From the NCBI GenBank assembly GCA_044892525.1, contig CM097885.1, positions 218,674,001-218,738,000 of the forward strand: a DNA stretch of 64,000 nucleotides. The letters run 5' to 3'. Below are positions 17,180 through 51,450 of this stretch, piece after piece; the first letter of the stretch is position 1, and every line of letters begins with the position of its first letter. The notes below the pieces were generated by a model. That model worked only from the letters and a program-made list of their open reading frames with translations. It had not been told where the DNA came from and made no database searches. The translations under genes were made by a program, and so were the position numbers. This DNA is from Schmidtea polychroa. Lineage: Eukaryota.

Positions 17180-18123
17180 ACATAGAGCTCACCTATACTC
17201 TAACCTGTTTATGTTTATGATAACGTTTAGCGGACAATTACGATATGGGAGACATAAAAGAATCAGTTAAAGAAACAATTTGACAATGCGAGGCATGTCA
17301 AAGAACGAATGTTGTGACAAAAAAGATGAAGGAAGAGACAATAAAGCTGACAGCAGAGGTGCCGTGGGAAAAAGTGTACATTGATATATGTGGCCCATTA
17401 CAGAAAACATTCAGAAAGAAAAGATATGTAGTCGCAATGATTGATCAATTTAGCAGATATATATCTCTGACTGCTGCCGCTAAACAGGATGAAGAAATGG
17501 TGAAGGAAACAATACTACAAAAATGGATTCTTAGATTTGGAGCACCAAAGGAAATTCACACAGAGTGTGGAAAAGTATTTGAATCTAAGACGATGAAAGA
17601 GTTTACAAAATCAATGGGAATTACACTATGCTTTTCAAGTCCATATCACAATAATACAAATGGTTTTATAGAACGTCAATTCAGGACAATAAGAGACTAT
17701 ATAAATGCATCATTAAAAGAAAAAAGTAGAACAGATTGGGCAGAAATCATACCAGAGATTAAATTTACCATGAATGCAACATTTCAGAAATCAATTGGAC
17801 GAAGCCCCACAGAAGTAATATTTGGAAGAAAAATAGCTCGAGAACAATTTCATAGTAAAGCGACGATTTCACAAAAAGAAGATACAAGAGAAACAACGCA
17901 GACAAGGAGATCATTCAATATTGGAGATGAGGTTCTGGTAAAAGTAGAATCAAGAACGAAAGACAAGGAAAGATACGAAGGGCCATACAGAATAATGCAG
18001 AAGATCCATGATCGCCGATATCTGCTACAAGACCAAAGTGGGAAAATGCTTCAAAGAAATGTTGAAAAGATGAAGAAATTTCTTAAAGAAGGGGGATGTG
18101 AAGTGCTTTCAGCAGAGGGTTAA
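17180..18123 (+). pseudogene. integrase remnant of a different, older Ty3/gypsy element, with PPT
   Basis: CEACQ zinc-finger half, VYIDICGP, IHTECG (second catalytic D replaced by E), NGFIERQFRT, RYEGPY (GPY/F); purine tract AAAGAAGGGGGA (18085-18096) followed by TG. Confidence 0.85.
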
Positions 18124-18595: not shown

Positions 18596-21500
18596 TAGGG
18601 TTGTTAATATCGGTTTTTCGAGCAATCCGATTATCGTTTGTATAAATCCGATTTTAAACCGATTATCGTTTGCACTTTGCATAACCAAAGCTACTTACAT
18701 TATTACTATTCACGCGCGTGTATAGTATAATTAGTTTTATTCAAAGTTTATACCACACACAAGGAGAATATGAACTGACTGTTTATGTAAAAAGTTAAAG
18801 CATATAAGTAAATTTGTTTTCAATTTCTTCGGTAATTTTCCCTGTATATACTAAAGTATAAATCAAAATAAAACTTTCCGGTGCTGCGGTGGCCTTATTT
18901 TAAAATTAAACATAAACATATCGAAACCATAGATATCAAAAACAAAGATTCCAAAGTGTAAACATTTAAAAGTAAGTACTAAATTCGATTTTATTTTTAA
19001 ATATCAGACAAGTCCTGGTTCATATTCAAAAAGACCAAAGATTCTGCATGATCTGGAAGGAGCCGGTTACGAAGCTTGGTTATCAGACGTCCAGTGGCCG
19101 AAAATAATCGTTCCGATTGCACTGAGGTTGCAGGAATGCATAAGAACTTCCGGGCAAGAATAGCTGTTTTGGGGAAAAGTTTCATATTATGTTTCCACCA
19201 CTCCAGGGCTGTTTCACTTGAGTTTGTCGACCATGATGATTTGACGTAATATTCAAAGTCGGATTCCTCTGGCGCCTGTTGTGCTGCACTATCACCAAGG
19301 AGAAACATAACTGCATCATGATTTGGTCGTGATCTTTTAGTTGGTGGGATCATGTTATCTTCATCCCGACTCGTCTTCGGCTGTTCGGGGCAATCTGGCA
19401 GCTGTCTGATGAGATGACGGACATTTTCATACGCCAGCTTTTTGAAATCGTCCGGAAATCCAGGAAGATGCTTATACATCGGATCGAGAATTGATGCAAC
19501 AACGCATTCGTTTTTTGCTGTTTCATTATTTTCTAATCCAAAACGACGTGAAATATTCTTAGCAAGATCTCTCTTAAATTCACCCATAATGTCAGAATCT
19601 TCTTCTTTAATGGTTAAATGATTTTTCACGAGTCCCCATAACATGGGAAAAACACAAGAGGCTGATGGCTGGCTTTCGGCTGACATGACGGACGTCACGA
19701 TCTGCAACGCTTTTAAAACAGGGAGCAATTCAGTCATCAGTTGCCAATAATCGTCCTTCATGCCCAACGTTTTGGCATCGTTCAATTTCACCACGTTTTT
19801 GTCGCTCAATACTGCAACTACTGGCCATCTCAGTTCTACTAGTCGTTCAAACATGTCATAGACGCTGTTCCAACGAGTCTTACAGTGCTGAATAAGTTTT
19901 AGTGGCGTTTTATCCTTGTCCATGGACAACTGTCTTTTCAGGAGCTCCCCCGTTGCCATTGGGCTATGTGAGAAATGTCCGACTAGTCGTGCTGCAGCTG
20001 ATATACATTTGGAAATTTGATGATATGTGACAACATGGGAGCCCATTGCATTATTGATGCAAAGTTGCAATTTATGCGCCGCACAGTGAACGTCAAACCA
20101 TCCATTGAGATTGCCTGCATGATTGATGTTGGATGCACCATCATGGACACATGCAACAATTTTTTCTTTTATTGACCATTCATCAGCTATACTACATAGA
20201 TGGTCAGCAATGACGGCTTGTATGTGGCGTTGAGTCATCAGAATTGTTCCAAGAACAGGCGTCATCATATTCCAGTCTGTATCAATGTAGCTTGCAGTAA
20301 AACTGAGATAAGCTTCATTGGTGACACTAGTCCAGATGTCGGTAGTGATCGCAATGTCCTTGACATGTTCATGGATATATTTCGACATTTTGACCACTAA
20401 ATTATTTTTCATTGCTGTTAGTCGTGCTGTCATCGTCTGACGACACGGAGGACGATATCCTGGCTCCACTATCGCCATCAATTCACGGAAGGATTTCGAT
20501 TCCACGAGCGAAATTGCCAACATATTTTCGGAAATCAATCTCGCAACCGCAGCCGTAATTTTTTCCTGTTTACTACTCGGACAATTTCTTTGTGTTGTAA
20601 TCAATGCAGTCAATCGTGTTTGAGTATTTGAAGATGTTGTTAATCCACCATGTTTGCTACGCAAATGTGCATGCAAACCAGTCGTAGTACCTCCACTCCT
20701 ACTTATTTTCTGTGTACAGAGCTTACATTGTGCCATCGTCGCCGAAATTTTATCAAAATTGTCCCAGACGTCAGACTTATTTATACGGAAACCCATAAAT
20801 TTAAACTGATTTTGTATTGATTTAGATAATATAAAAAATGTTTATTGAATATTACGTAATATTCAAACTAAACCGCAATTTTCAATTATATGGATTAATA
20901 ATAGCTACTACAAGAGCAACTAACTGAATGAATGGAAATTATATAACAGTTTATATGTTTATAGTAGATTTGAACCATGGATTGGAATTTCCAAAATCTT
21001 GTCATAAATTAAAATCCCGAAAATCAATTTACTTCGACCTGAGCAGCCTCTTAGACATTGTCAAAAGATCAACAAACTGAATAAATTTGAGAATGGTCGT
21101 CACCCAAACTTGAAGTTTGTCCTAGTGTCCAACTCTCTTCCATATTTCAATGGGTAAACAACCAAACATTATGATTCGAGGAATGGCACATGTCTTTCGA
21201 TCTCTTTACATCTGGCTTTCATGAAGATGATGCGGTATGCAATTCAGTTTATTCTGGTTTTAAGTTAAAACCAGAATAAACTTTTAACCGGTTCGCAGAT
21301 GCAAGATATCAGATTGCAAAATAGACCTTCACGGACTAAACACAAAATCGCCGACCTCGGCCACATCTAGTCCCTGTCAAGGGGGTTAATAGCTAAGCTT
21401 CTGTTATGGACTGCAGTAATCAAATCTTTGGTGGCCGATTTCGGCAACAAATATCAGGTTGCCAAACAAAACCGGCAAAATGCAAATACTAAAACACACA

Positions 21501-27592: not shown

Positions 27593-28447
27593 TGTTGGGT
27601 TTTTAATGCAAGTCGGTACTACGGTCTGACTCCTTTGTGTTCTTTTCCAAATAAATAAATAAACAAATAACCCAACACAAAATCTTTATTGACACTGATG
27701 CAGTTACACTTTTACACTTGTATTAGTTTACTCACACTTGATACAATCAGGTTTTGTCTGCACTTTTCAATTGCCAACAAATCTCACACAGGGGTAGATC
27801 TTCCAACGGGAGATATCCCTTTCTGGTACGTTCGATTTTTTTTTTATATGGTTTACTTTCGACTAACTTTGATATTTCCTTTTTCACTCGCGTCAACCTC
27901 TGTTTTCTTTTCTTCGACCAACTGGCATTTTGTTTTCTTGTCAGTTGCTTTTATACTCGCTTGTTAATTGACTTTATTTTTGCCAATTATTTTTGGTTTT
28001 ATTTCCCCCGGGCTTCCTCTTGGAGGTCTAATTTAATTGAAGGGAATTTGCTCATTTCCTTTGACGGCGCTTTTTATCCGGCTAAATTAATTGCCTTCCC
28101 GAAATTGGATTTCTCAATTCGCTCGGGTTTTCCATTGTATCGGGTTTCCCATTAGCTCGGGTTCTCCATTAGCTCGGGTTTCCCATTAGCTCGGGTTTTC
28201 CATTAGTTAATTAATTTTTGTTTTTTTGTAATTTATTCCTTTTAGGGACCCCCCATTGATTTTATTTTATTATAGCTGAACTCGTCTCATTATTCAGCAT
28301 CCGCCCATACCAGTTTCCCCCAGAAAATATTCATTTTTAAAATTTTGATTTTTTAATTAATATTTTGTACTTTAAATTTTTATTTTGAATTTGGTGTTTT
28401 TGTCAATTTTCACCTCATTTTTGTGCCTCTCTTGTTGAACCCCAACA
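27593..28447 (-). repeat. 3' LTR (855 bp)
   Basis: TGTTGGG...CCCAACA; differs from the 5' LTR by 2 substitutions and 1 homopolymer indel that I could see. Confidence 0.97.
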
Positions 28448-28461
28448 TATTTCCCCCCTTT
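28448..28461 (-). other. polypurine tract
   Basis: AAAGGGGGGAAATA immediately before the 3' LTR. Confidence 0.92.
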
Positions 28462-30625
28462 AATTTAGATTCGACCTCGAATCTGTACATTTCTTATGGT
28501 TCAAACAACAACAACAATAGTACCAATACTAATAACAATAACAAAATAATAATAATGTTCTTATAGTTGAAATAACAACAGTGATAGCAACAGCACTTAC
28601 CATTACCATTACCATTATTAAATTATTATAATACCAATAAATTGAGATGAATTTTTAAATGTAAAGGGTGAATGTAAATAAAACATTGAAATAAAAAAAA
28701 TTTGCTTAGAAATTTTCAAAAATTTTACCTAATAGATTTTTGTTGGATTATTTACAAGACAAAAAAATATTAATGTAAAATTTGATAAATTTTCATAATT
28801 AACTATAAAAATATTTGCAATTATCTTAAAATAAATATTTCCCAACAATTAAAACTGTTGAAATAAATTTCATTTTTGTTGATTAAAACATTCTTGTATT
28901 TATTGAAATTAGAATTGATGAAATTTCTCTATTAGTCTAAAATTACTTAGTTGAAAGCTCATTGATATTAATCAGTTTAGTTAAATGCCCAGATGGGATG
29001 AGGCAAATTCATCTGCTGTGTCAGTGGCAGAATTTCAGTGGGCCAATATCGAATTACTCAATTAGATTGCAGTTGAGGGCAATTAAATTATTTACGAAAT
29101 TGGTTTGCGCTTTTGACGGGAGATTCAAAAAGAAAATGATAATTAAATCCACCCATCATCCGATTGAATTTTTTTTTCAAATCTACAATTTGGACAACTA
29201 ATTCAAGGGTAATTTAATTTTGTTTCGCAAAATAGATTTATTTTTTTTTCTTCTTTCAGTTCTTACACGAGATAAGGAGAAAGCCAATCAGAAGAAAGGA
29301 GGGAAGAAACGAATTTTTTTTACTTTATAAAGGCAATCACATTTCCATATCATTTTTCATTGTTTTGTTAATTTTGAAATTATTACCATAGAATATTATT
29401 ACCTGATTATACCGAAATTATAAACAGATTATTCTTAGTTAACATAGAAATATAGTTGGACAAAACTAATAATAAAGTTCGTAAATAATAATTTTATTTT
29501 ATTTTGTTTTTTTCATTTCCCTCTTAGATTATAGATATTTAAACAGAATTTTCGGCACTGGCTTTTACAAGTGTTTGGACAAATATAAAACAAAATAAAT
29601 GATCAACAATGCAAAAAGGAAATGAATATTTTACAGCTTTTGTTTTTTCACACAGACAATCCGAAAAATCACCCCCGAACCGACGGCGCACCGTCTCATC
29701 CACTCCGATCTGACACAGCCGATGTGGACAGCCAAGCCCCCACCCATCGTTGGCTTGACAAATATTAATTTTATTTTTTGAAGTTAATTTTATATTTATG
29801 CATTAAAGTAAGTAAATTTTCTTTTCAATTGAATTTAATAAAAATTTTTGTAAATTTTCTTTTTGATTGAATTAGTATATAAAAATCAATGCAATGTTTA
29901 TAATATTTTGAAACCAATTATAAATTCGTATAATAAACTGCTAATGAATTTCCAACACACATGTAAGTTGATGTGTAAATGATTGAGAGGTTTTCTTTTT
30001 ATTATAGGCGGTTTTATTAAGTGAAACATGGATAATAGTAACAACAACAACAATAATACTAACAATAATAATAATAACAAAACATAAACAATTCTGAAAA
30101 ATTAAAAATTAATTATTTCATTTTAAATAAAAGTTCATCAAAATATTTTCAATTTTCAAATCAAAATTTCTGAAATTTATTTTTTCCCTTAAACTTTTGT
30201 GTCTGTTACTGAAAATGAAATTTGATAATATTTCAACCGAAAATTAGTCGATAAAAACGTAGACATTTTATTTTTGACTAATTAAACATAACAAAACATC
30301 TCAATGCTTTATACTGGAAGATGGGAATGAAATTGTCTAATGAATTTTTAATAATAAATTGTTATGATTTGTGACAACCTGTTTATGTGGCTCTTTAAAA
30401 CTACTCATTTCCAATTGTTGTCCAGGGTAGCCAAACCCCGACAATTGGAAATGTGTTTGTTGTTATACACAATAATAAGTTTATTTATTTATTTAATCAT
30501 TTATTTACTCTCAATTATTTACTTATTTATTCTTATTTTTGGGGTCTAACTGATGCGCTGCCAATAAATACATGAGACAAAATCGAGTTCACAATTATTT
30601 ATTTTATAAATACAATATATAAAAA

Positions 30626-32095
30626 TTAATCCATCTTTATTTCTAATCGTTTCGTTTCATGCCGATATCGTATTATTGTCTCTTCGCGTTCATATACTAC
30701 ACCATTGACAGTGACAGTGTCTCCGACATCAATGTTCGAAGTTGTTTTTCTCTTTTTGGATTTTCTACATTCTGGCATTGGACCATATTCAAGTGTTGGA
30801 TGTATCCTTATCATCGAAATGCTTTCCATTAATGCGACACCTTCTTCCGCAATTTCTAAGAATGATTCATTGGCCCACTTCACTTGAATCAATGGATTTT
30901 CATTATCCATCGTCACATTCTCCTCGAATGTTAAATCAATTTCTTCAGATTCCATTACATCTTCAATTGGAATTTGCGTTAGTTTTTCCGGTATTGCAGT
31001 TGATGTTGATTCAATTTCCCGAAGCTTCTTATATTCGTCCCACGAATATCGCTTTGACGGTTGATTTTTGGGCATCGGTATGTCATCAATCCATTGACTT
31101 TCTACTTTCTGGTATACCTTGCGTATACTTTTCACGTCCTCGAGAGCCGAATGAATACTCATCTGAGTCTGTTCTCCACATATTTCTTTCACCACTGTTT
31201 GTAATTTGAACCATTCTCCCCTTATGGTTACTCCCATGTTCTGAAGTATTGGTGCTGCTGCTAGATCTCGAATGCCGTACAATTGTTCAATCCATATCCC
31301 CAAGTATTGTAATTCTGCATGTAAATCATGGCCGATCAATATCTTGCCCACTGTCAAGCGTTGAATTTCTTTTATTGCCACGTATTGATCACATTGGTTC
31401 CTGCTAGCCACTTCTGTAATTCCATGGATCCTTGAATTAAAATGTCGGATTTTTCCTCTTGGAGTGAGGTATACATCTTTTACTACTTTTCCATAATAAT
31501 TCATAATTGCTATTGCTAAAGGGATCATTTTCCCTTGGTCTGATGTGCCATATTCAGCATCAATGAATAATATTCTATTGCGGATTTCTTCTAGATCCAT
31601 TTCTTTTCGGAGAAACGACATTTTCTTTTTCAACATTTCCTTTGAAATTTTCAATAACATTGGGTCTTCTCCTTCAATTAGATGCATCTGTGGTACCTCA
31701 TCCGCTTCATTCTCAGTTCTGATTTCCACCACCAACGTTGTCTCCTCATTCGCTGCTCGTAGTGTTCTCCACATGAAGTCCTTCTGCAGCTTCCATGATG
31801 TGAATTTTCGGAGTTGCCACCATATTGTATTATCGTTCTTCAGCACTTCCACTGTACCTCTGATCACGTGTATGTGATATTCTTCCTTCTGAGACAACTC
31901 AATTTCATCTGTCAATTTCAATTCTGAATTTCTCCTTATTGTAAACATTCGTATCTTCATTCTTCTGTCATCTATCCGCAAATAATTTGGAATTTGTAAA
32001 TTTTCATTGATTTCGTATAATTGTTGGCTGGCATGATTTTTCTGCATCTTGAAGTAACTGTCGTAGGTGGATCTTGCCCATTGTACTTGTTCCAT
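30626..32095 (-). CDS. proviral accessory ORF (489 aa) with ISG20/REX4-like DEDDh 3'-5' exonuclease domain
   Basis: ILFIDAE (Exo I), IHGIT, KILIGHDLHAEL (Exo II), HSALED (Exo III) with ISG20-like spacing; intact ORF; TTTTAG acceptor with 5 nt between it and the ATG. Confidence 0.85.
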   Translation of the reverse strand: MEQVQWARSTYDSYFKMQKNHASQQLYEINENLQIPNYLRIDDRRMKIRMFTIRRNSELKLTDEIELSQKEEYHIHVIRGTVEVLKNDNTIWWQLRKFTSWKLQKDFMWRTLRAANEETTLVVEIRTENEADEVPQMHLIEGEDPMLLKISKEMLKKKMSFLRKEMDLEEIRNRILFIDAEYGTSDQGKMIPLAIAIMNYYGKVVKDVYLTPRGKIRHFNSRIHGITEVASRNQCDQYVAIKEIQRLTVGKILIGHDLHAELQYLGIWIEQLYGIRDLAAAPILQNMGVTIRGEWFKLQTVVKEICGEQTQMSIHSALEDVKSIRKVYQKVESQWIDDIPMPKNQPSKRYSWDEYKKLREIESTSTAIPEKLTQIPIEDVMESEEIDLTFEENVTMDNENPLIQVKWANESFLEIAEEGVALMESISMIRIHPTLEYGPMPECRKSKKRKTTSNIDVGDTVTVNGVVYEREETIIRYRHETKRLEIKMD

Positions 32096-32527
32096 TTTTG
32101 CTAAAATAGTTATAATTTAACGTTTGAATTTAATTTACTTTTAAAACTAGGGCTGAGATGAAGTATCCGAAGGATACTGTCCCAGCTACTAGCTGTATAA
32201 ATAATAATAATAATAATAATTACCGTTTAGTTAATTGTTGATATATTTTTTTTTTTTGAAAATTAATGGAGTTTAATGGATTTTACCCTCTTTTAATACC
32301 CTTATGAAAATTCCCTTAACCCCGTTTTTCTCTCCCCCTTAACACAGCGCTAACCAATCAAATTGGTTCTTTCCGTTGACATTGAAAAGTGCAGATTCAC
32401 AAGTAAAATAAAATGAAATATTGATCATATCCATAATGAAATAAATATTAATAATATCCATAAAATATTTATACTATATTACTACTACTACTTTATCAAT
32501 TTTTGCATGCAAAGTATTTATGTCTTA

Positions 32528-34602
32528 CTACACAAATGTTTCTTCATAAACGATCCAAGGTCTCGCAATCTCGGATCGATTCGTAGAAGATTTGGGTATT
32601 GTTCGAAATTCAATTAGCACAATGATAATGAGAATAATGAGAGAGATTGTTATAATGAGAGTAGTTATTAATAATGTTACACACACAATTTCACTGTCAG
32701 TTTTTAATGACGATATGGTTTTGTTATTAGTCATTGACTCATTGATGCTAGAAAAGATGATTACGTTGACAGAGCTAGGGGTTCGGTTGGACTGATTTGA
32801 TTTGTTTCGATTTCCATACTGCGAGTTAATAGATGGAATTTGCACAATTTTATTTTCCACTAATGTTAATTGCCATAAATTTGAAAATAGAGAACGTCTA
32901 TAGTATTTTATTTTAATGAACACAAATTTTGACGTCGATATTGGTGAACGTTGACGAAAAGTTAATATTTGAGATTTATTTTTTTCATTTAATATCGATT
33001 GAATTTTTCCATAATAATATAAAATAGCTTTTTGATTGGGCTCCGCTTGTCGGGTAACATTCACTAATTGATTGAAAATATGAAAAGTAACCCGATTTGT
33101 TTCATTAACTAATCGTATCATATGTTGACTAGAGTGTATTCTGATCCATTGACTATCAATTTCAGTTCCGTTTTCATATAAAGATTTTTCATAATAATGA
33201 ATCAGAATATTATAGTTATGATGTACTTTTAAATTTGCATACTTTATAAAGGGTTTTCTGCTATTCAATGTATCTATCGCATAATTTTGAAAAACTGCTT
33301 TTACTTGTTGGGATTCCTGGGGTTCCCAAAATATGTCAATTCCATTTACCAGTGGTTCAATTGATACTCGATTATGTAATCTCTTTGTCCAAATATTAAT
33401 ACGTATAAGATTTTGTATTTTTGTATTATTACTTTTCGAATCCAATTGCGTAATTAACCAAGGGTATTCATAATTCATTGTTAATTGTCTAGCCACATAA
33501 ATATTTTTGGTGCTGTTCAATTTTATTGGGGGTTCGAAATAGTTTATTAGATTATCTATCTCTATTTCTTCTGCTCCTCCAGCATAATAAACCCAAACTA
33601 TTTGAGTACATGTTGAATAAATATGAACTTTGTCTAATAATACAACTGTATTAGTTGCATATAACGGGAATACTCTCACTGCATTTACTGACATTATATT
33701 GATAATCATTACTGTTGTAATCAATAAAACTTTATTGATGTAACTCAATGGAGCAGGGTTTTTTGTAAACTTTTGTTTAATTACTGGGTTCCTTGCATCT
33801 TTATTTGGTTTTGATCTCAATGGATAACGTGATTCATCTTCTATTATCTTCTTGCATCTGTTTACATGAACGATGATTGTCCCAGCCTTTTTATTGTTTT
33901 GTGGACGCAATTTTAAGTTAGTCTCTGTCGTATCACACACTAGATATGGTCCTTTAAACGGTCGTTGCAATTTCGTTGACAAGCCTTTTGTTGGTTCTGG
34001 TTTGTTTATATACACGAGATCTCCAATTTTAATGTCATGCGCCCGTGCGCGTTTATCATAGCATTCTTTATACGCTTCTTGATGATGCCTTATGTTAAGT
34101 CCAGCTTGGATCCATACTGACTGTAGTCTTTCATGCATAGCTATTTTATAATCTGACACATCCATATATTGGGAAATAGGTGACTGAAATTCTAGATCGA
34201 CTGGCATATTGTTTCGCCGTAGATACATGAGATAAAAGGGTGTTTCTCCAGTGCTTTCATTTACTGCATTCCGGTATGCAAATAGGCATGGTTTAATGAA
34301 TAAATCCCAATCCTTTTGTTTCCTATTTACATAGGATGATATCATATTAATTAGTGTCCCATTAAATCTTTCAACTAGACCATCTGTTTGTGGATGATAT
34401 GGTGAGGTACTAAGTTTTAATATACCAAATAAATCTGTGATTGATTTAAATAATTCACTCTGAAAATTTGTTCCTTGATCTGTAAGTAATTTCTTTGGTG
34501 CTCCGTATCGAAAAATAATATTCTCCACAAATATTTTCGCAACTGTTTCTGCTTTCTGATTTGGCATTGCATAAGCTTCTGGCCATTTAGTAAGATAATC
34601 GC
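32528..34602 (-). CDS. polyprotein C-terminal part: integrase core and GPY/F, then signal peptide, glycosylated ectodomain and TM anchor
   Basis: DYLTKWPEAYA, LLTDQG, HPQTDGLVERFN, FKGPY, IVHVNRCK; then VLLITTVMIINIMSVNA and IVCVTLLITTLIITISLIILIIIVLI. Joined to the upstream ORF by restoring one T in the run at 34603-34607. Confidence 0.9.
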
Positions 34603-37600
34603 AAAAACGATAATGTATTTGTTGCCATTTGTTGTTTCTGGCAATGGACCAACGATGTCCATTGCTGTCATTTCCATTGGCGCCTTTGGCACTGGCATAG
34701 GCTTAAGCGGAACTTTTATTTTCCGTCCCGTATTTCGTCTTGTTAGGCATATCTCACACGTATGACACCATTGTCTGACATCTTGTTCCATCGTTTTCCA
34801 ATAATATTTCTGTTTCAATCTTGATAATGTTTTTCGCGCTGATAAATGCCCTCCTAATGCTCCATCGTGATACAACAACAGCAATGCTTTTCGATGTTTT
34901 GTCGGAACAATAATTAACAAATTTTCATTTTGTACACATTTTAACAAACCATCATGAATAATGTATTTATGGTTCTCTTCGGCAATATGTTTCCAGTCAC
35001 TCTCCTTTTTGATTGAGACAGCATGTTGACGTAACTGATTTAATTCCTCGTCATTTTCCTGATCATCTTGTAATTTTTCGATATTATTTACCGTTTTAAT
35101 TGCCAAGAATATTGTATTTTCGCAATTTTTCTCATCTTGATCAACATTATTTTCTACGGGTATTCTCGACATAGCATCCGCATTTGCATTTGATTTTCCT
35201 GTACGATACTTTATCTCGAAATCATATTCTTGTAACGCAATTGACCACCTAATTAATTTACTGGCCGAATCTCTGTGCTTCATTAGCCATTGTAACGGAT
35301 TGTGATCTGTAAAGACGACAAATTTTCTGCCCACTAGATATTGTCGAAAAGTAGTTATCCCATATACCAATGCTAACGTTTCCTTTTCGATTGTTGAATA
35401 ATTCTTTTCATGAGGTTTCAATGATCTGCTGGCATAAGCAATTACATGATCTTTTTCCCCTTCTACTTGCTGTCCTAATACCGCGCCTAATGCGAAATTA
35501 CTGGCATCTGTCATTAATATAAACGGTTTTTTAAAGTTCGGACATCTTAATATCGGCTGTTTTATTAAGCTTTCTTTGAGTTTATCAAACGCTTCTTGCT
35601 GAGCTGTTGTCCATTTAAATTTTGCTTGCTTTTTCAATAACATGTTCAAAGGTTGTGCTACGTGTGAGAAACTTTTAATAAACTTTCTGTAATAACTGGC
35701 TAATCCCAGAAATTGTCGAACCTGATCTACATCCTTGGGAATAGGATATTTCCCAATTTTTTCTACATTTTCTGGATTTGGTTGCAAACCTCGACGCGAA
35801 ATGATATGACCCACATAAACGACTTCAGATTTCCCCCATTCACATTTGGAGGGTTTTATTTTTAAGTTTGCTTCTAACAATCGCTTGAATACTGTTTCCA
35901 CATCCTGCAAATGTTCCTGAAAACTATTCGAAAATATTATAATATCGTCAATATACACTAATGCATGTGGTATATCGCGCAAAACAAAATTCATACCTCT
36001 CTGAAATGTAGCAGGTGCTCCTGTTAATCCGAATGGTAACACGTTAAACTCATATAGACCCTTCCCATCTGAAAATGCAGTTTTCCTTCTATCTTCCTCT
36101 TTGACTTTAAATTGATTGTATCCTTTATTAAGATCTATTACCGTAAAATATTGCACCTCCCCCATCTGATCGAACATTTCCTGTGGAACAGGAATAGGAT
36201 ATGTATCTTTTCTCGTTACTTGGTTCAATTTTCGATAGTCGACACAAAATCTTAAATCACCGTCCTTCTTTTTAACTACTACTATTGATGATGAGAATGG
36301 TGAGGAACTATCTCTTATTATATTGAATTCTTTCATTGCTTTGATTTGCCGATCACTTTCTTCCTGATGTATGTATGGTATTCTGTACGGCCGTAATTTT
36401 ATTGGGGTTTCGTTGAGTAATGGTATTTCATGCTCAATCACCTGAGTGAGTCCCAGATCATACTCATGTTTTGCAAATACATTTCTATATTTCTTTAATA
36501 ATGCACCGAATTCTTGTTTTTGCAAATCCGTCAAATCTTTGCTTGTGATCTGAGGTTCTTTATAAATTTTTATATTTCTCGGTAACTTCTGAGCTTCCTC
36601 TGATTTGATTTTTGTTAATTTTCCCAATTTGGTTTTGGGTTTTATCTCAACGGATCTTGCACTATAATTCGCTATTCTAACTGGTACTGACTTATTTTGG
36701 ACTTTCACTACTTCATCACACATAGGCACATCGTATTTTTCAACCAGCTTTTGATTTGGCTCAAATATGTACTCCTCATCTGAGACCCTCATAACATCTG
36801 CATAGTATATTACTTCGCTTTTTGGTGGTACTTCCAATGTTTGGTTTAGAAATACCTCTCCTACTTCAGGCACTACTTCACCCATTTGTCCTTTTATTAG
36901 TTTTCCAGTTCTCAGATCAAGAGAGATTCCATGTAGTTGCTCCATGACATCCATGCCAATTAGACATTTTACAGGACTTTTTCTCATCACTGATACCCAA
37001 TGAATTATTTCTTGCTCTCCAATTATCAGTTTAACTTCTAATTTTCCAACAATATTTAGTGCATTATGTGACATTGATTTAATAATGTGATTCGTTGGTT
37101 TTATTTTGGCTTTCTCCTGATACGTCAAGAAACTTTCCGCTACTATAGTATGACTTGAGCCTGAGTCTAATAAAGCTTCCACTTTTCTCTTGTTAAACTG
37201 TATGTTTATTCGAGGTTGTTTTCCTCCTACTACTGTTGTCATTAGTGCATAGCTGCATGGTAGACCAAGCATATTCTTTCTTTCAATTTCAGCACTCGTT
37301 GGTTCAATCTTCTCTAATTCGATTGTGATATTATCTACAGGTTTCATTTCTTTTAATTGTTCATTTGGATATATTGGTGCTGTTGGTCTAAATGTCGGGG
37401 TATACCATCTACTAAGAGTATCAATCCCGCTTAATTTTGGCATTGGTTCAAGCAAGAACCTGGACTCTGGCTCTACTTTACTCTTTATTACACTTTTTCG
37501 AAAGCATTTATACTCCGATTCCCCGTTGTTGTTATCATCATTATGATCGTCGTTTTTATCTTCCGACTGACACGTCGATTCCTCACTTTTTCGGCCATTT

Positions 37601-40600
37601 CTTAATTGTGCCCTTACTCTTGCCATTTCTTTAAATTGATGATCTGTAATAAAGAATCTAGCCAACAATGGAATACAACCAATAACTAATTTCCATGACC
37701 ATCCCGATATTGCGTATATTCGATGTACTGACAACATTTGCGACACTACCACCTTTGCCGTTATCATAATCACGTAAATTCCAATTAAACCTGCACATGC
37801 TTGTCCCAAAAACATGAACTTGCCCCAAATCTTTTCCATCGTTTTATATGTAGCTCGTTTGAAATGATCAGGTGTTAGCAAATTTTCGTAATTTACTGTT
37901 CCTTCTCCATTCGGTAATACTGTGTCAATCATTTCTGAAATTATCCGTTCCTTTTTGGATGGAAACAACAAATTCCTTTGAGCTTCTTCGATATCTTCGC
38001 TTGCATACAAGCCCATTTGTGCCATTTTGTTTAGTGATGTGAAATTTATCAGGTATTCTAAATTTGTTAATTCTAGTTTGTCTGGAGTCTTGACCCCACG
38101 ATAATCTGGTAAGGCTATCCATGAGTCTGTAGCTAATCGGTATAAAGGGGCTAATAATCGATTGCATTGCAAAAGTTTTGGTTTAGTTTGTTCATCAAGC
38201 AAGATTCTAGTTATCGGTTCCATAAATCGTACCTTTCCCCCAAAGCTTACTGGTAATTCATTCGTACATTTTTCGTATTTGGCAATTTTCACTGTGACTT
38301 CTTTGCATTTGTAACTGTATAATGCTTCTCCAAATATTCTCGCAAACACTCCATTTTCTGATATTAGCATAGGTGCTACTAAATTTGGATTCGTAATTGC
38401 CATCGCCATCCGATTTCGGAGAATCTCTTTATTCAACTTACAATCGTTCAGAATCATTTCTCTATATACATTTTCCATGATGTTTTGACTAAAATGAAAC
38501 AAATAATCAATTTTATTATTAAAATAATGAGTAAGTTTAATGTCATCTCTGTGAATTTTAATTTTTGCTTCTTCCACAACATTTCTAGACACGTAAACAC
38601 CTTTATAATTTGTTACATATACCATTCGACCACATTTATTTGTGATTTCCTTTTTTATAAATCGCATTCCATCTGCTGGTAACGTAGACATTATAACTGT
38701 TCCCATTTGCTTTGTCCATACTGGGGTTGATTTAATGGTATTATTTGGTCTATAATTCATAGTGAAATTATCTGGTTTATCTCTAAACTGTTCTCCTACT
38801 AGCTCTTTAAAGTTCATAGTTTTTAAGTGCGCTAAATTACACTTATTTGTTTCTACATTATAAACAAGAATCGATTCCCCTGTTTGACAATGTGTTTGTT
38901 TCATATTACAGAATGGATGAGTTTGTAATTTTCCCGTATCATCATCGAAAGCTCCTTCGAACTCTCTCAACTCCGTGAGATACTCTTCTAGCACCACTGT
39001 TTGCTGAATAATTTTACCGTTCATTTTATATGGTTCACCTTCACAGTCGCCATTTGCTTTCATTACTCCCTTTACAATTATTGTTTCTCGTATTCTATGG
39101 TTCAATTTTGCCTTTAAACGAATTTCTGGACTTATTTTTAATTCTCCTGTTTGAAATGCTGCTAGACAGTTTTCTGGAAGCACCTCGACTGGCCTAGGTA
39201 TCGCATGCATTTTTATGAGTGACGTATGGCTCCATTTACCACAATAGAATACAAATGTTGTATGTTTGGCAATACACTCTCTCACTTGAGTTCTTCGCAG
39301 ATCAGACTCTTGATACACATAATATTTTACGTCATTTTCTATTTTTAAACTGCTCGGATACGCACCTGGGCATTCCGACATATCTACTACCGAATAGACT
39401 TTTCCCATTTCAGTTTGGGAACAATCGTACGCAACTAAAGATGATGTCTGTGTAATTATTGCACAAAACGTAATCACCATAAACATCGCCCATGGAAATA
39501 TCATAGTTTTTCTTAGTTCTGGCTTAACTCTTTCATTTACTCGTCTTTGGGGTGGACTCATTTCTTGCTTCTCATTTTTCTTTTCTGTTAGAGATGAACA
39601 CAGTGTTTTCCAACCACCTTTTTCGTTTACCCAGCTCATTAAATATTCGTTTACTAGCCGGGCAGCGATGTCTATCAAATTTTCTAACTTGTCGGACCTT
39701 GCGAACGTATGCGTTCCAATTTCTAAAACAACATAAGTTAAAGCTATTATTATAACTTCCTTATTAATTTCATTTTTTGCCAAATTTTCAATTACTGATC
39801 TCTCGCAGAATGTATTCTCTTCGCCAAATTTCTGCATCACTTCAGGAAGCCTATTCTTCATCTCTTTAACTATTTCTTTCAGTTCATCCTCTACCTCTAT
39901 TTCTATGTCGAACATTGGATATACTGCTTTAACGAGATGTTTCAACATTTTCTTAGTTTCGTCGACGTCCTGTTCTAGCCTCACTAAATATTTCTTTATT
40001 TCATATAAAGTTCTAACTTTCTTATTTTTGATTTCACCATTTATTTCGCCTTCAGGTACAAGTGGCTCTCCTTGTACGTCTGGTTCCGTGGACTGATCTT
40101 TGTTATCAGGATCTTTTTGCTCATTATCACTAACGATTTCATCAATTTCTTTATTTCCCTTAACTTTTTCATCTTGTTCCTCTGTGTCAGGCTTGTTAGA
40201 CTCAATATTTACTTCTAAACTCACTCCTTTTACTACGACTATATGGTTCACTAAATATCCCACTCGTCCATCTCGGATCAAATATCCGTTTTCATCCAGC
40301 TCTTGTGGTACACACCCACAATCATATAGGTATTCATCATCGTCAAGTTCTTCACCTTTGTACATTACTATAATAATTCCATCTTTTCCCAGCGTTTCAG
40401 CCGCTCTCTTCCACAATTTTCGGACCTTTGCACACCAATGCTCGTCTACATATTCCGTTTTGCCATATCCCTCATAATCTAATGCTATCAAAAATGGCTT
40501 TAACTCTACTCTTGCCTTTCTGAGCTCCTTGCCCAACCTTTGCAATAAACTTCTTAATAACTTGGCATATCTGGTTTTCACATGTAAATATGGTCGTATT

Positions 40601-42717
40601 GCATTCACTATTTTTAGTTTATCGTTTTCCTCCATTTCTAATTTCTCAATAATCTGTAACTTCTCATTGATTTCATCTTCATCTCCAATATATAACGCAT
40701 CATTTAATTCCTCTAATATCTCCCTTGAATTCCTTTTGTCTATTATTTTACTACTCATTATTTCATCACTAGTAATTACATTTTCCATTTTTAATTCATT
40801 TGTACTTCCTGGAATAAATCCACAATCTACCAAAAATTCGTCATTTTCTAACAATCTCTCATTAAATCTCAACTCTATCATGCATCCTTCCTTTTTTTCT
40901 TTTAATTTATTCTTTAAATCATTTACACAATCATTTGCCTCACAACGACAACATAGTACACTTTTATCAATCTCGTTTACTACTTCCACCAAGATGGAAT
41001 CTAACCCTGTTTTCTCTCTCAAAGCTTTTCCAAATATTTTCATTAATTCTTTAATTTCTTCTTTATACCTTGGATTCATATTATAGTAGTTAACGCACAA
41101 GCTAATTACACTTTTTATCTTTCTCATACTCAAAGATATTTGACTTAATTCTCTCAACGATTTGATCACTTTAGCCGACTCTATTTCATTATTTCCGATT
41201 AGTTTTTCGATTCTGGTCATTATCATTGTTGCTTTTTCACTTTCTAAATCATCTTTTATAACTCTCCTTTTCGACTCTTTTTCATTCAATTCCTCTTGCG
41301 ACTCATACATCATGTGATTATTGTAGTCCTCTTCTGATTCAAACTTTGACATCAATCGATCCAAACGTCGACCCATTTCTCTCACTTCGCTTTCAATTCT
41401 TTCATTAAAATTATCTGGCTGAATAAAAGCTACATTATCCATCTGCGGTTTGTCACTCTGAAACCTAATCGATTTCTTTAATATGGGCCTTTGGAATTTA
41501 TCCACATTTCTTGGACATGATCTAGCCATGTGTCCATAACTTCTGCATGAATGACATTGAATTTGTCCTTGTAGATTTACTTTATCTCTCTGCGGTGATG
41601 GTGAAGTTGATGTTGATCTTGACCTGGCAAAACAATTTCGTGACACATGCCCTTTTCTTCCGCAATTAAAGCATTGTAAGTTATCATTAGTTCTCGGCTC
41701 ATTAATGTTCGCTTTAGTGAAACTTTTCGCACCATTTCCTTTTAACCAATCAGGCCACATTTGCCTTGGACTCCGTTGTACATTATTTTTGGACCAGCAT
41801 TGATTGCTGTCATGTCCCATTCTTTGGCAATTATCACACTGAATCGGAATTGGGCTTCTCTGTACTCTATTTTTAAACCAGCATTGGTTAACATGGTGTC
41901 CAATCCTTTGGCAATGACTACATTGGATGGGACCTTCCTTTCCATCTGTTTGAATATCTGTTGACTTGTTCGACTCAAATTTGGATCTAAATTTTGGTGA
42001 TGGACTACTTGTTTGTTGAAAACGATTGTTTCTAATTGGGGTTACTGATCTTTCGCTTGCGCCTGAGATGACTGCAAACGATTCTGATTTTGACTGTGTG
42101 CTTTTTAAATTTAGCTCAATTTTCATTGCCTTTTTGATCAATTCATCAAAGTCATTAAAATCAACATAGCATAGAGCCTTTTTAATTTCTTTCTTTACTC
42201 CTGACAAGAATTGATCCTGCAATAATTCTTTTACCTGCTTTGCCATCTCGGCCTGTTCTGGTTTCACTTCGAACGCTTTCTCTGCAAGAGTTGATAAATG
42301 ATAAGCAAACTCACTTACCGATTCCTCTGGCTTTTGTACGCGGTTATAGAATTTCTGTCGCATTATCCGTTTGATATCCCCTCCGATTAATTTCGTAGCT
42401 AAAGCGTCTTTCAACTTGGTCCAGTCATTTGCTACTATTCTTTTATCAATTTGTTGCCACGCTTCTCTGGCTGCTCCTTTTAGGTATAGCGGTAATCTTT
42501 GCACCATTATCGATTGGCTCCATCCATAGGCCGTCGCATACATATAGTAATCTGCCATGAAATCGACAAATTCCAGCGGATCTCCACCGTACTGATCCAC
42601 AGGTAGTTTTTGGCAACTCGCATAATCATTGCCTTCCCTGGCATTCCCCACAGAAACTGTGGACACCGGTGTTTCATCATTATTATTTGTATTATTAACT
42701 TGTCTTTGGGTACTCAT
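34603..42717 (-). CDS. Gag - accessory domains - Env-like glycoprotein - protease - RT - RNase H - integrase N-part polyprotein
   Basis: First ATG at 42717; LPLYLKGAAREAW and FYNRVQKPEESVSEF (gag), 4 x CX2CX4HX4C, AYDC glycoprotein, LLDSGSS (PR, D at 37165-37167), LRFCVDYRKLN and YIDD (RT), TDASNFALGAVL (RH), H..ALGGH..C..C (IN zinc finger). Confidence 0.95.
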
Positions 42718-43100
42718 TATATTCTCTACTAGTTTTTGGCTTCTCAATTTATAAAATGATCTGGTTAACACAGGTTTTACTCGTCTAAAATTTAAAGTAT
42801 TACAATTACAAAATTTACCTTTCGTTTTAATTTTGACTTTTCAACAATCACTCGTTACAAATTTTCCCACTTTGCTTCAATAATAAATTCACCACTTTAA
42901 TAATTCTCGAATAATGTTCACCACTTTCAAATAAACGTTTCACTTCAATATTTATTTATTTAATTATTATTATCTTTTTCCAAATTTTTTTTTTTTTTTT
43001 TTCGATACTTTACTAATCTCAACAAATTTTCACCGACCTTTTTATTCCTCGGTATCACTCAAATATTATCACAATTTCAACAAATCTTCACCGACTTTTG

Positions 43101-43118
43101 ATCACGTCGGGCTCACCA
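43101..43118 (-). other. primer-binding site for tRNA-Trp
   Basis: TGGTGAGCCCGACGTGAT, 4 nt inside the 5' LTR boundary; 17/18 to the avian sarcoma-leukosis virus tRNA-Trp PBS TGGTGACCCCGACGTGAT as recalled. Confidence 0.85.
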
Positions 43119-43214
43119 AATATGTTGGGTTTTTAATGCAAGTCGGTACTACGGTCTGACTCCTTTGTGTTCTTTTCCAAATAAATAAATAAACAAATAA
43201 CCCAACACAAAATC

Positions 43215-43220
43215 TTTATT
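43215..43220 (-). terminator. LTR polyadenylation signal (also 27685-27690)
   Basis: AATAAA about 95 nt before the LTR end; AATAAA at the equivalent position in the diverged LTR near 52515. Confidence 0.6.
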
Positions 43221-43476
43221 GACACTGATGCAGTTACACTTTTACACTTGTATTAGTTTACTCACACTTGATACAATCAGGTTTTGTCTGCACTTTTCAA
43301 TTGCCAACAAATCTCACGCAGGGGTAGATCTTCCAACGGGAGATATCCCTTTCTGGTACGTTCGATTTTTTTTTATATGGTTTACTTTCGACTAACTTTG
43401 ATATTTCCTTTTTCACTCGCGTCAACCTCTGTTTTCTTTTCTTCGACCAACTGGCATTTTGTTTTCTTGTCAGTTG

Positions 43477-43484
43477 CTTTTATA
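43477..43484 (-). promoter_or_regulatory. LTR TATA box
   Basis: TATAAAAG downstream of the U3 tandem repeats and upstream of the AATAAA. Confidence 0.65.
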
Positions 43485-44327
43485 CTCGCTTGTTAATTGA
43501 CTTTATTTTTGCCAATTATTTTTGGTTTTATTTCCCCCGGGCTTCCTCTTGGAGGTCTAATTTAATTGAAGGGAATTTGCTCATTTCCTTTGACGGCGCT
43601 TTTTATCCGGCTAAATTAATTGCCTTCCCGAAATTAGATTTCTCAATTCGCTCGGGTTTTCCATTGTATCGGGTTTCCCATTAGCTCGGGTTCTCCATTA
43701 GCTCGGGTTTCCCATTAGCTCGGGTTTTCCATTAGTTAATTAATTTTTGTTTTTTTGTAATTTATTCCTTTTAGGGACCCCCCATTGATTTTATTTTATT
43801 ATAGCTGAACTCGTCTCATTATTCAGCATCCGCCCATACCAGTTTCCCCCAGAAAATATTCATTTTTAAAATTTTGATTTTTTAATTAATATTTTGTACT
43901 TTAAATTTTTATTTTGAATTTGGTGTTTTTGTCAATTTTCACCTCATTTTTGTGCCTCTCTTGTTGAACCCCAACATTTATGACAATGTGTAAATTAATA
44001 GTGACAAAAGCAAAAGGCAATTTTTAGTCAATGATCCTTTGAAAAAATTAATTTTTAAATAATATATTATTTATTTTGAATATCATTATTTGATTTGATT
44101 TAATATATTTTATTTATTAATTTTATTAAGCAGAGGCGTTAAAAAGAATTTAAAAAACGAAAATCTATCAAATGACGTTCATTTTTCTAAAATATCTTAT
44201 ATAAATGACTTTGTTTTTTTTTAAAAAAGAATGTCAAAATTTAAAAAAATGTAAAATATTCAAATCTATTATTAATTTCATGTATAAATAAATTTAAATT
44301 ATTTTGTTTTTGTTTAAATACCCAAGA

Positions 44328-46980: not shown

Positions 46981-47229
46981 TCTTCCCCCAGGTAATTTAC
47001 TTATTTATTATTTATTATCAAAAATAATAATAATATTAATATTATTATCATTATTATTTGCCTTTTATCCATTGATTTAAATTTTATTGTTAAAATTCTA
47101 CAAATATCGAAAATAAATTTCTATCGTCATGATAATATTATATTACAATAATAATATTATATTTTTAACTTATCTATCAAATACCAAAATATTGTATTTC
47201 ATAATAAATTTAAAAAAATTATTAATTAC

Positions 47230-47843
47230 TTTATCAAAGAAGAAATCTTTACTGAATTTCTTCCAAATTTACATTTAGTTAATTTTACAGAAAGAACATT
47301 GGGTTTCAGTGTGGCATGGAGTTTATTATTCACATAAACCCGATACGCTTCTAATCGATGGCGGATGAAATCCATTGACTGGTTATCGCTGTCATGGACG
47401 ACAGTTGTGTACATCAAAGGTTGCTGCCAATTAATGTAAATTGTATTAGAAACAATCTTTGAACAAGTTAAAAATTGAGGAGGCGAAGGACTCGTTTTGG
47501 TTCTTGCAAACAATGGGACTTTGCACGGATAATGAGTTGTTCGACGATTATCATCATCATTATCAAAATTGTCACGAAATTTATCAATATTTAGAATTGT
47601 TTTTATGCTAACAACAGCTTCCACGTCTATTCTATACATGGTGGCTGGTAATAATCTATCCAAATCTGCTATATGACAGTATTTATCAACATTTATACAG
47701 ATTGATGATTGCTCTTCGGAGTTATCTTTGCCTGAATGAGTTATTTCAGAAATTCTGATAACTTGAGATAAAAGGCGATTTGTTCCATTTACTGATGGAA
47801 GACTCCATTCAATTTTAATTTTATCTAGAAAAGTTTCTTGTAC
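47230..47843 (-). CDS. host multi-FN3 gene exon (about 1.5 FN3 repeats)
   Basis: TTTCAG acceptor; KIKIEWSLP, LDRLLPATMYRIDVEA, SPSPPQFL..TIYINWQQP, YRVYVN. Donor position ambiguous; AA|GTAATT fits the phase. Confidence 0.85.
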
Positions 47844-49213
47844 CTGAAATATTGAAATATCGTCAGATAACATTAGAAATCTTTTAATAAATTTTGAAAT
47901 TTATGAATTAAATGTATTCAAAGTGCAAGTTGAAATTGAAGGCCATTTTAATACAGTTAATCACATTGTGTTATGTACCAGTTGTTAACTGATTAGATGA
48001 TAATTAATAATAATAATTAATAATTTATTAAAAAGCTTAACCTTGAATCAGTAAATATATCGATGTTTTTGATGTATTTACTGATTCATAGTCTCCAAGT
48101 TTTTTAATAAATACAATGGAAAAGAAATCAGTGGTGAAATTTGAAAAAAAGTTCTTATAATAATAATTAATAAACCAATAAAGTACAATCATTCTATCTT
48201 CATTGCAAATTTGACTTTATTTCATTATTTTTCGATATTATGTCAAAGTTTTTATTAACAAGCAAGTAAAATATATTATTTTAATGATTTTTATTACAAT
48301 TTATACTAAATAATTTAGGGTTACGAATGATAATCCATGTTGTTTTATGACTTCAGTTTATCCCTGACCCGGAACTTCAAAGGATTTTAATTTGTCACGA
48401 CACAAGCATGGGTATTTACCGAGGCAACTTTGCTGGTACTGTATTATCGTATTTTGGGATAAGTCGAAACATGAGCTCCGTTACCAAAATTACTAACTTC
48501 TAATTTGCCTTGTCGAGTTCTTTGGCTAACATAAGAAGAAATGACGGTTATTCTATCTCCTCTGGAAATTTTCTTTCATTGTCAAAGACGTATAACAATC
48601 GACTTATGGGCTGTGATTTTAGACCCTATTTAACACTAGTATGCTCCAGTGTCCATATAGGAACACTGATGCATAACTACCGTTCTACACGGTGCTCTGA
48701 TTATAAACTGATCAAACTTTTCCATCAAATGGGAAAAAACAGCCAGCTCACTCTTCTCCATTAAAATTAGATTTTGAGGCTCCTAAAATTCTGTTTCTTT
48801 GCTACTAACCAAATATTTGAACCACAAAACAAAACCATACAAAATTCCTATAACATAAAATGTTTATTAATGAAAATAATCACCAATTTTACAAGCAATT
48901 AAGTCTTCAAAAATATATTGTTTGACATAAGCCTAAGCAACTAATTCAACAAGATTTCACTTATTAATCAAAATAAAACTGGCATTTGATTTTTGTGAAC
49001 TTAGTTCATGTGGATTAATTTTGTATTTGTTTACATATAAAAAAGATACTATTTTTAGTAATTGCATCTTTCATTATACAGTGTGTACATCGTTTTTCCT
49101 CCTTGTCACCGAATTCCATTTAGTGATCTAATATTTTTGTTATAACAAGAACAATTTTTTCCCAAACAATTTTAATCTGTGTATACTACCTTACCTACTT
49201 CTTTGATTGTGTT

Positions 49214-50359: not shown

Positions 50360-51450
50360 ATGAATATCGAGAATATCACCAAACTACTTACTGTTATCTT
50401 CAAGAACACCTATTTTACCTTTTTATAAACAAGTTAAAGGTCTGCCTATGGGTTCTAGCATATCAGGACTGCTAGCAATCATCTTTATGGATAACCTCGA
50501 ACGGCAGACACAAAGGACCATAAAACCTATCGGTTTTTATGCAAGATATGTAGATGATATCTTCATCACGACCCAAAGCAGAAAAGAAGCGGAGGAAATA
50601 TTTCATACATTCAATGCGGCTCACCGAGATATTAAGTTTGAAATCGAATATCCGGAAGGAGATGGATCCCTTAATTTATTGGATTTGAGAATTAAAATAG
50701 AAGCAAATACTCCAACATACGGGTTCTACAGAAAACCAGCTCGCAAAGAAATATTTATGCACCAAAGATCAGCGCTTCCATACTTACAGAAAGTACATGT
50801 CATAAGAAACGAGAAACGAAGAATAGCCAAACGATGCACTGAAAAAAACGAAAACTTTAAAGAACAATCAAATTTCAATAAAATCCTACACAGAAGCCTA
50901 CACCAAGGTGAGGACATTGAAAGAATGAGTTATACCGAAAAATATCTAGGGAATTGACACAAAAGAAGAAGAAATATTTCTATCTGAATATCTCATTCAT
51001 CAGTGACATACTCGACTTCAAGATCCTGAAAGAACTTAAACGTACCGGTCTTCCAATTCGGATAGCACATAAATCTTGGATATTGAGAAGGGCTCTGGCA
51101 GGCAACATAAATAGAGAAAACAATTGCACAATGAAAAACTGCCAGACACCGAAAGATATGTGCTTTAGAAAAAATATAGTCTATTGCATCACATGCAATG
51201 TATGCAATGAAATCTACATTGGAAGTACACTCAGGACTTTGCACTAAAGAGTTAAAGAACATCTAAATCCTGGTGGAACATCCTCGATAAACAGACATCT
51301 CCAACAATGTCAACCAATAGAGGAAAAAAAGATTTTTCAATCGAAATCATAGCTAATGGAAACATCAAAAAAGAAAAATGTCAGATTCAAAGAAGCAATT
51401 CTCATCATAAACAGACAGCAAAAAATCAACACTAAAGAAGAAATCAATGA
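50360..51450 (+). pseudogene. 5'-truncated Penelope-like retroelement (RT plus GIY-YIG endonuclease)
   Basis: YKQVKGLPMGSSISGLLA.IFM, YARYVDDIF, LNLLDLRI; NIVYCITCNVCNEIYIGST.RTL...VKEH; in-frame stops and frameshift. Confidence 0.88.

Follow-up and report, generated by a model that had tools for sequence, protein, structure and literature searches.

A complete long terminal repeat (LTR) element, lying on the minus strand of the analysed window (64,000 nt of Schmidtea polychroa contig CM097885.1), belongs to a family that encodes Gag, Env and Pol in one reading frame, with an Env possessing the fold of herpesvirus glycoprotein B (gB) placed between Gag and Pol. Signal and transmembrane (TM) segments predicted along the 3396-aa polyprotein suggest that it is threaded through the membrane, probably with Pol on the side of Env's single TM that faces the cytosol, and it is proposed tentatively that Pol enters particles as a membrane-bound Env-Pol precursor. 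The layout has already been published, and the packaging of Env-Pol, as a consequence of the topology, is offered here as a sharp prediction.

A single reading frame for Gag, Env and Pol

In the window copy, the first open reading frame (ORF1) extended from an ATG at 42717 to 34417 (2766 aa) and held the zinc knuckles, a weak Bcl-2 match, a Monjiviricetes-type fusion glycoprotein, protease (PR), reverse transcriptase (RT), RNase H (RH) and the integrase (IN) zinc finger, with the integrase core, signal 2, ectodomain 2 and TM2 following in a second frame that ended at 32528. A frameshift near 34600, within the integrase core, thus interrupts this copy. The preliminary description of the region had obtained an ORF of ~3396 aa by restoring one base; the window copy was here left unmended, the frame question being answered from natural sister copies, and these bore that ORF out. 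The stop-to-stop frame had exactly 3437 codons in 21 of 150 scored copies (at least 3413 codons in 28 of the 150, by hand count), and the ATG located 41 codons into it gives a protein of 3396 aa. Another copy with the same 2807-codon frame is interrupted at a different place. The N-terminal part of the integrase, the integrase core and ectodomain 2 shared one open frame in 27 of 29 sister loci, and recurrent frames of 3334 codons were found in a sister family of ~61% identity. Pfam confirmed the domain order Gag-Env-PR-RT-RH-IN, and the full order in the intact frame was Gag, ubiquitin-like segment (weak), Bcl-2-like domain (weak), signal 1, gB-fold Env, TM, PR-RT-RH-IN, signal 2, FN3-like ectodomain and TM (Table 1).

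An AlphaFold model of Env (pLDDT 62) matched herpes gB in its ectodomain with a Foldseek E of 6e-13 and a VIA Z of 11.1 (rmsd 6.7, 365 aligned). The element is young, recently spread and present in many copies, 150 of 150 scored matches being 96-100% identical over 117 aa. It showed the features of GAG-ENV-POL errantiviruses of the gB type, namely env between gag and pol, the herpes gB fold and near-identical copies.

The stretch joining the Env tail to the protease was stop-free over 130 codons, for which chance at that composition is ~5e-5, and the other frames held 13 and 18 stops. Compared with the sister family it shared 45% identity with a pN/pS of 0.45, synonymous sites being near saturation. 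According to blast, the Env frame continued into protease in 10 of 11 long relatives (P0001-P0011, of which P0010 shows a DTGA motif only), and it did so in five of seven further long matches and in 25 of 30 sister-family loci.

Table 1. Features of the element (all on the minus strand; window coordinates)
Feature	Position	Strand	Evidence or remark
Complete LTR element	27593-43976	-	16,384 bp; Ty3/gypsy (Metaviridae) features
5' LTR (TG...CA)	43123..43976	-	pairwise comparison with 3' LTR
Primer binding site, 18 nt	43101..43118	-	complementary to host tRNA-Trp(CCA)
Gag with a capsid-like region and four CCHC knuckles	41515..42717	-	knuckles at aa 266, 294, 349 and 388
Ubiquitin-like segment (weak)	40801..40968	-	Pfam ubiquitin E 0.0028, below cut-off
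Bcl-2-like domain (weak)	39610..39882	-	Pfam E 0.0019, below cut-off
Signal 1, predicted internal signal/anchor	39439..39507	-	hydrophobic segment ORF1 1071-1089; cleavage predicted between T-S-S and LVAYDC
Env ectodomain, class III gB-like fusogen, predicted luminal	37828..39438	-	PF24664 E 1e-86
TM1, 21 uncharged residues between two lysines	37756..37818	-	ORF1 1640-1658
GWS segment, predicted cytosolic membrane-hugging helix-Pro-helix	37648..37719	-	ORF1 1667-1685
Env-tail to protease linker, coding, constrained	37228..37632	-	
Aspartic protease (DSGS)	36931..37221	-	RVP E 5e-6
Reverse transcriptase (YIDD) and RNase H	35224..36276	-	Pfam
Integrase, frameshifted in this copy near 34600	33803..34908	-	Pfam and frame analysis
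Signal 2, predicted, after integrase	33677..33733	-	second frame 324-342
Ectodomain 2, FN3-like (lead), 11 sequons	32678..33676	-	
TM2 and short tail with Tyr motif	32528..32668	-	second frame 679-697
Separate 489-aa ORF, ISG20-like DEDDh exonuclease domain	30626..32095	-	7yw5 E 9e-11
Polypurine tract	28450..28461	-	
3' LTR	27593..28447	-	pairwise comparison with 5' LTR

Predicted membrane topology

We infer the threading, cleavage and packaging of the polyprotein from its sequence, the topology having been read from hydropathy, charge bias and sequons. The four strongest usable hydrophobic segments lay at the positions where alternating signal and TM segments had been claimed, and, as far as sequence goes, signal and stop-transfer segments alternated as in a flavivirus-type polyprotein. 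Comparisons were made among 13 fused sequences related to one another, namely the window, the sister and P0001-P0011 (the long relatives were picked by length, and P0012-P0014 were left out), and with 143 new representatives, of which 97 were used as stand-alone Envs (600-800 aa, Met start) and 95 for the comparison of TM segments.

A hydrophobic stretch preceded the motif xx[AG][YF]DC in all 13 fused sequences. The predicted signal 1 cleavage site had a polar c-region, with T, V or S at -3 in 13 of 13 and A, S or T at -1 in 12 of 13. The matching Cys could be aligned in 93 of the 97 stand-alone Envs, with a median position of residue 26 and a position within the first 40 residues in 89, and the N-terminus was strongly hydrophobic in 73 of the 97. 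Because the signal peptides of stand-alone Envs occupy the same place, signal 1 appears to be the usual signal peptide of an Env, to whose front Gag has been fused.

In 12 of the 13 fused sequences TM1 was a run of 21 uncharged residues flanked by basic ones; in the remaining sequence it had 18. The GWS segment that follows it was less hydrophobic than TM1 in all 13 and possessed a core of 10 residues between K/R with an invariant GxxP; the longest uncharged run around it was 10 in 11 sequences, and 11 and 15 in the other two. Its pN/pS against the sister family was 0.12. In the stand-alone Envs, median hydropathy was 1.29 for the GWS homolog versus 1.87 for TM1, and the tails showed no excess of sequons (53 versus 55.9 expected). 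Three short matches from a near-length search ended before, or were frameshifted at, the GWS segment and hence are uninformative. Herpes gB possesses a single TM followed by cytoplasmic membrane-binding helices (PMC12607583).

The unit of signal, ectodomain and TM located after integrase recurred in the sister family, P0001, P0006, P0007 and P0011, with sequences that were mostly unalignable; ectodomain 2 units held 29 sequons versus 17.3 expected, while the Gag and Pol sides were neutral. Ectodomain 2 gave no Pfam match and nothing credible in a PDB profile search, and an AlphaFold model built from two sequences was unusable (pLDDT 42; best VIA Z 4.8). It contained L.P.T.Y-like motifs, which we take to be an FN3 signature, and an Atlas search with it yielded FN3 membrane proteins (named hits below 0.9, a low recognition score); an FN3-like nature is regarded as a lead. 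An FN3 exon at 47226-47900 was considered as a relative and rejected, the sequences not being similar. The tail of TM2 (32560-32528, minus strand) ends in YEETFV, that of the sister in YYETRL and that of P0001 in ETTLV, presumably Tyr sorting signals and PDZ-type ends as read by eye.

Two further relatives bear on the same question. In L070, from a metagenome, a signal-FN3-like-TM unit lay in frame between the Env-tail proteases and PR-RT (aa 1585-1775, frame from base 2), its signal being 18 residues long and its TM, of 22 residues, preceding arginines; it would be a two-crossing insert that keeps RT cytosolic, on the tail of the FN3-like protein. L072 encoded Gag-Env-PR-RT-RH-IN-signal 2 in one frame with an Env only 27% identical.

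Several observations weigh against the predicted topology. The sequons of Env were depleted (23 observed versus 42.9 expected), and the sequon excess of ectodomain 2 stemmed from two of six sequences. L072 has an extra 19-residue uncharged stretch ahead of signal 1; therefore, hydropathy parity can mislead. As for the GWS segment, the AlphaFold model was uninformative there (pLDDT below 50), the homolog had an uncharged run of at least 17 residues in 48 of the 95 stand-alone Envs, and the first 15 residues of the tail were net negative in stand-alone Envs. The comparisons of signal 1, TM1, the GWS segment and L070 nevertheless support the threading that had been predicted earlier, with Pol on the side of Env's single TM that faces the cytosol, and we consider this topology probable.

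Proposed packaging of Pol and competing explanations

With such a topology, the polyprotein would cross the endoplasmic reticulum membrane four times. Signal 1 would insert N-in/C-out and Env would fold in the lumen; TM1 would return the chain to the cytosol, where the GWS segment would rest on the inner leaflet and Pol would fold, and signal 2 would direct the FN3-like protein back across the membrane. Cleavage by signal peptidase would yield three pieces, each anchored: Gag-UBL-Bcl2-signal 1 (UBL, ubiquitin-like), Env-Pol-signal 2 and the FN3 protein, all in the same membrane and in a 1:1:1 ratio. Gag would assemble there, enclosing Pol suspended from the Env tails, and the protease of the element would free RT and IN at maturation. 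The preliminary description had signal peptidase separate Gag from everything downstream and left Pol hanging on the cytoplasmic tail of Env. The separation is retained here, but Gag would not be set free, as it would keep signal 1 as a membrane anchor; likewise Pol would be cytosolic behind TM1, but signal 2 would anchor it at the C-terminus as well.

The Gag:Pol ratio of the particle would be set by the number of Env trimers that fit, and surplus Env-Pol would stay behind. Tf1 degrades surplus Pol. An excess of Gag at synthesis, which the earlier account had thought necessary, is not required, since there are single-ORF gag-pol elements such as DGLT-A (PMC6101501) and the ratio can be fixed during incorporation.

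Telling against the packaging of Env-Pol is that the timing of signal cleavage or of protease activation could alter what is packaged; because delayed cleavage or early release by the protease would change the cargo, this step is graded below the topology and is held only tentatively. If, with the same topology, signal 1 were cut late, a covalent Gag-Env-Pol with a luminal loop would assemble and Pol would be packaged in cis with Gag. Precedents are the delayed C-prM cleavage of flaviviruses, which co-recruits capsid and envelope (PMC7601889), the foamy virus Env leader, which is cut late and retained in particles (PMC7828637), and the two flanking TMs of some gB-type Envs (PMC13524379); moreover, the window has Ser at -1 and five of the 13 relatives have no Ala there. 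On the other side, 12 of the 13 sites fit the -3/-1 rule and the c-region is polar; we regard a late cut as unlikely. The first Env Cys lies six residues from the site, and the start of the Env model aligns to gB 103-111; given the disulfide pattern of gB, a lasting tether would likely block refolding. These points favour a cut and are silent on its timing.

Less likely again is that the protease severs Pol from the Env tail early, so that Pol, free or held by signal 2, reaches the particle by contacts with genomic RNA or with Gag. Foamy virus Pol is packaged without Gag-Pol in this way, through a Gag-RNA-Pol complex (PMC7828637), and Env trimers would bring three proteases together, while in several relatives two to four protease-like domains stand in tandem after Env; retropepsins, on the other hand, usually activate at assembly (textbook knowledge), and no packaging signal was identified here. 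The tandem domains were observed in P0001, P0003, P0005-P0007, P0009 and L070, several of which have one more protease-like domain after integrase; such an arrangement could enable dimerisation in cis.

Pol might also come from a gag-pol RNA spliced so as to omit env, the Gag excess being supplied by Gag-only RNAs or by frameshifting into a stop, as splicing or frameshifts are used by many LTR elements (textbook knowledge). The Env-PR junction, however, was open and constrained across diverged families, no acceptor-like motif between TM1 and RT was shared by both families (two in the window and none in the sister, with a crude pattern), and the gag-TM spacing was kept within 31 bp in 38 of 40 copies (hand count). 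One of the two exceptional copies carries a deletion and was rejected as a splice product, since RT is missing from it and there is no GT end; for the other, the stretch fetched matched on the Gag side alone. The data consulted for RNA, none of them recorded as RNA, were Logan contigs in all eight comparisons, from which rare forms are dropped and which are weak for splicing; within these limits, no sense-strand GT..AG joint was present among the 16 joints listed of 29, and an env-skipping splice, which had been named as a means of overturning the proposal, was not seen. Run X4, which covers only the Gag-side linker and the leader, had sense poly(A)-like ends at 40892, 40018, 39575 and 39335, two of the four with AATAAA 20 and 28 nt upstream, and these poly-T ends might be taken for Gag-only RNAs. 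All four lie on templated A-runs, create no stop and are likely the result of internal priming; as premature polyadenylation they were not counted, and contig gaps are uninformative in this respect. Three in-frame slippery sites had a counterpart in the sister family (aa 203-204, 1558 and 2032), the one near aa 203 being a heptamer common to both that would suit a frameshift in Gag. At aa 203-204 (42111-42102, minus strand) a -1 shift would meet a stop ahead of the zinc knuckles. The shared sites are probably explained by conserved residues and thus protein-driven, and in a scan for synonymous conservation no interval was outstanding after allowing for the number of intervals. Taken together, an origin of Pol from spliced RNA with a Gag excess of this kind is judged improbable.

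Most improbable is that the GWS segment crosses the membrane, leaving full-chain Pol luminal and functional Pol to another route. The long uncharged runs of the stand-alone homologs and a KD19 of at least 1.6 in 11 of the 95 favour it, whereas the 10-residue core between K/R with its proline in the fused lineage speaks against a crossing, stand-alone tails lack a sequon excess, and signal 2, ectodomain 2 and TM2 would be inverted against charge bias and sequons.

If Env-Pol is indeed the packaged precursor, a widespread group of retroelements would use a third route of enzyme packaging, neither Gag-Pol fusion nor RNA bridging, in which Gag and Pol each have an anchor of their own in the same membrane, with Pol between the tail of a type I protein (Env, or the FN3 protein in L070) and a second signal; Env incorporation would set the enzyme dose, and particles lacking Env could not copy themselves. 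This wider claim is held more loosely than the packaging of Env-Pol itself. Were it true, replication would be coupled to envelopment in the GAG-ENV-POL elements of flatworms, nematodes and bryozoans, no RT reaching the core where assembly at a membrane fails, a new route would be added beside Gag-Pol fusion and the foamy RNA bridge, and the retention of an intact, in-frame Env across diverged families would be explained.

Related systems and further features of the element

GAG-ENV-POL elements with a gB-type Env have been catalogued in nematodes, bryozoans and flatworms (PMC13524379). Among them, Smed_errantivirus_1 (Chary and Hayashi) is likewise a multi-copy element with a gB-type Env before pol, and Env domain I of the element was ~80% identical to it over the first 156 residues (count by eye), which points to a host of planarian type; the parts of its description covered mention no primer tRNA, single frame, processing, splicing, second membrane protein or exonuclease ORF. 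For the Burro elements of planarians, a single polyprotein that holds env in frame between gag and pol was reported in 2019 (PMC6431247), and the layout is therefore not new; the preliminary description had known of no retroelement with this logic. The element shares this arrangement of one polyprotein with Burro/GYPSM1, which exceeds 30 kb and encodes 4873 aa versus 16.4 kb and 3396 aa here (PMC6431247). The Ubi/SUMO-like and BCL2-like domains that precede Env in Burro had candidate counterparts in the right order, both matches being below the Pfam cut-off, and a conserved stretch devoid of a Pfam match occupied the place of the Burro dUTPase-like domain between PR and RT. No Pfam match at E 0.05 was found for the MATH, BIR and ankyrin cargo of Burro; because of this and of its length of 16,384 bp, the element is Burro-like and not Burro. 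Burro1 is cited, second-hand, as having an IAP function (PMC13465017), and in the description of Burro, in the portion covered, neither a membrane protein following IN nor a topology is mentioned (PMC6431247).

Atlas virus and other nematode belpaoviruses encode Gag-Pol-Env as one polyprotein in which membrane glycoproteins follow IN in frame, similar to signal 2-ectodomain 2-TM2, but differ in that Env comes last and has a class II fold, hence a covalent Gag-Pol (PMC9094657). Foamy viruses resemble the proposed system in packaging Pol without a Gag-Pol fusion and in possessing an anchored Env leader with a cytosolic N-terminus, whereas their Pol is produced from a spliced transcript and depends for packaging on RNA, not on a membrane anchor (PMC7828637). 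In Flaviviridae, the signal of the next protein similarly anchors the capsid, and host signal peptidase acts together with a protease of the virus (PMC7601889). These viruses are unrelated to the element. The flavivirus polymerase is not packaged. In the literature searched, with partial coverage, no paper stating the packaging of Env-Pol was found.

The element possessed paired TG..CA LTRs, a target duplication, a primer binding site and a polypurine tract together with the order PR-RT-RH-IN and a YxDD motif, as in Ty3/gypsy elements. Alignment of the LTR pair gave 855 matches, two mismatches and one indel, and the 4-bp duplication TTTA flanked the element. The host tRNA matching the 18-nt primer site was typed as Trp(CCA) by ARAGORN; the genome itself contains ~820 near-identical tRNA-Trp(CCA) genes (L068 and L069), those listed forming a 284-bp tandem array, and 960 matches to the primer-site pattern.

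On the Gag side, a second stretch similar to ubiquitin was seen by eye near aa 780-805. The Bcl-2-like domain had PDB matches only at E of at least 0.3, with a Bcl-2 match of E 0.0015 in the relative P0004, and a hydrophobic stretch (ORF1 988-1006) falls within it. Signal 1 lies ~35 residues after this domain (39882-39439, minus strand). Bcl-2 proteins carry a tail anchor at a comparable place, and signal 1 may double as an anchor of this type. Downstream of the polyprotein, the exonuclease ORF retains acidic and His motifs and had no tblastn match in the sister-family stretches fetched.

The LTRs contain a 17-bp tandem repeat (28094-28223 and 43623-43752). A stretch related to it at 16778-16823, located beside an integrase fragment (17284-18123), suggests an older relative of the element. 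The flanks of the window held four hAT transposase ORFs, one FN3-containing ORF and one RT fragment (4611-5417, 6154-6987, 10080-11252, 18997-20841, 47226-47900 and 50364-50957).

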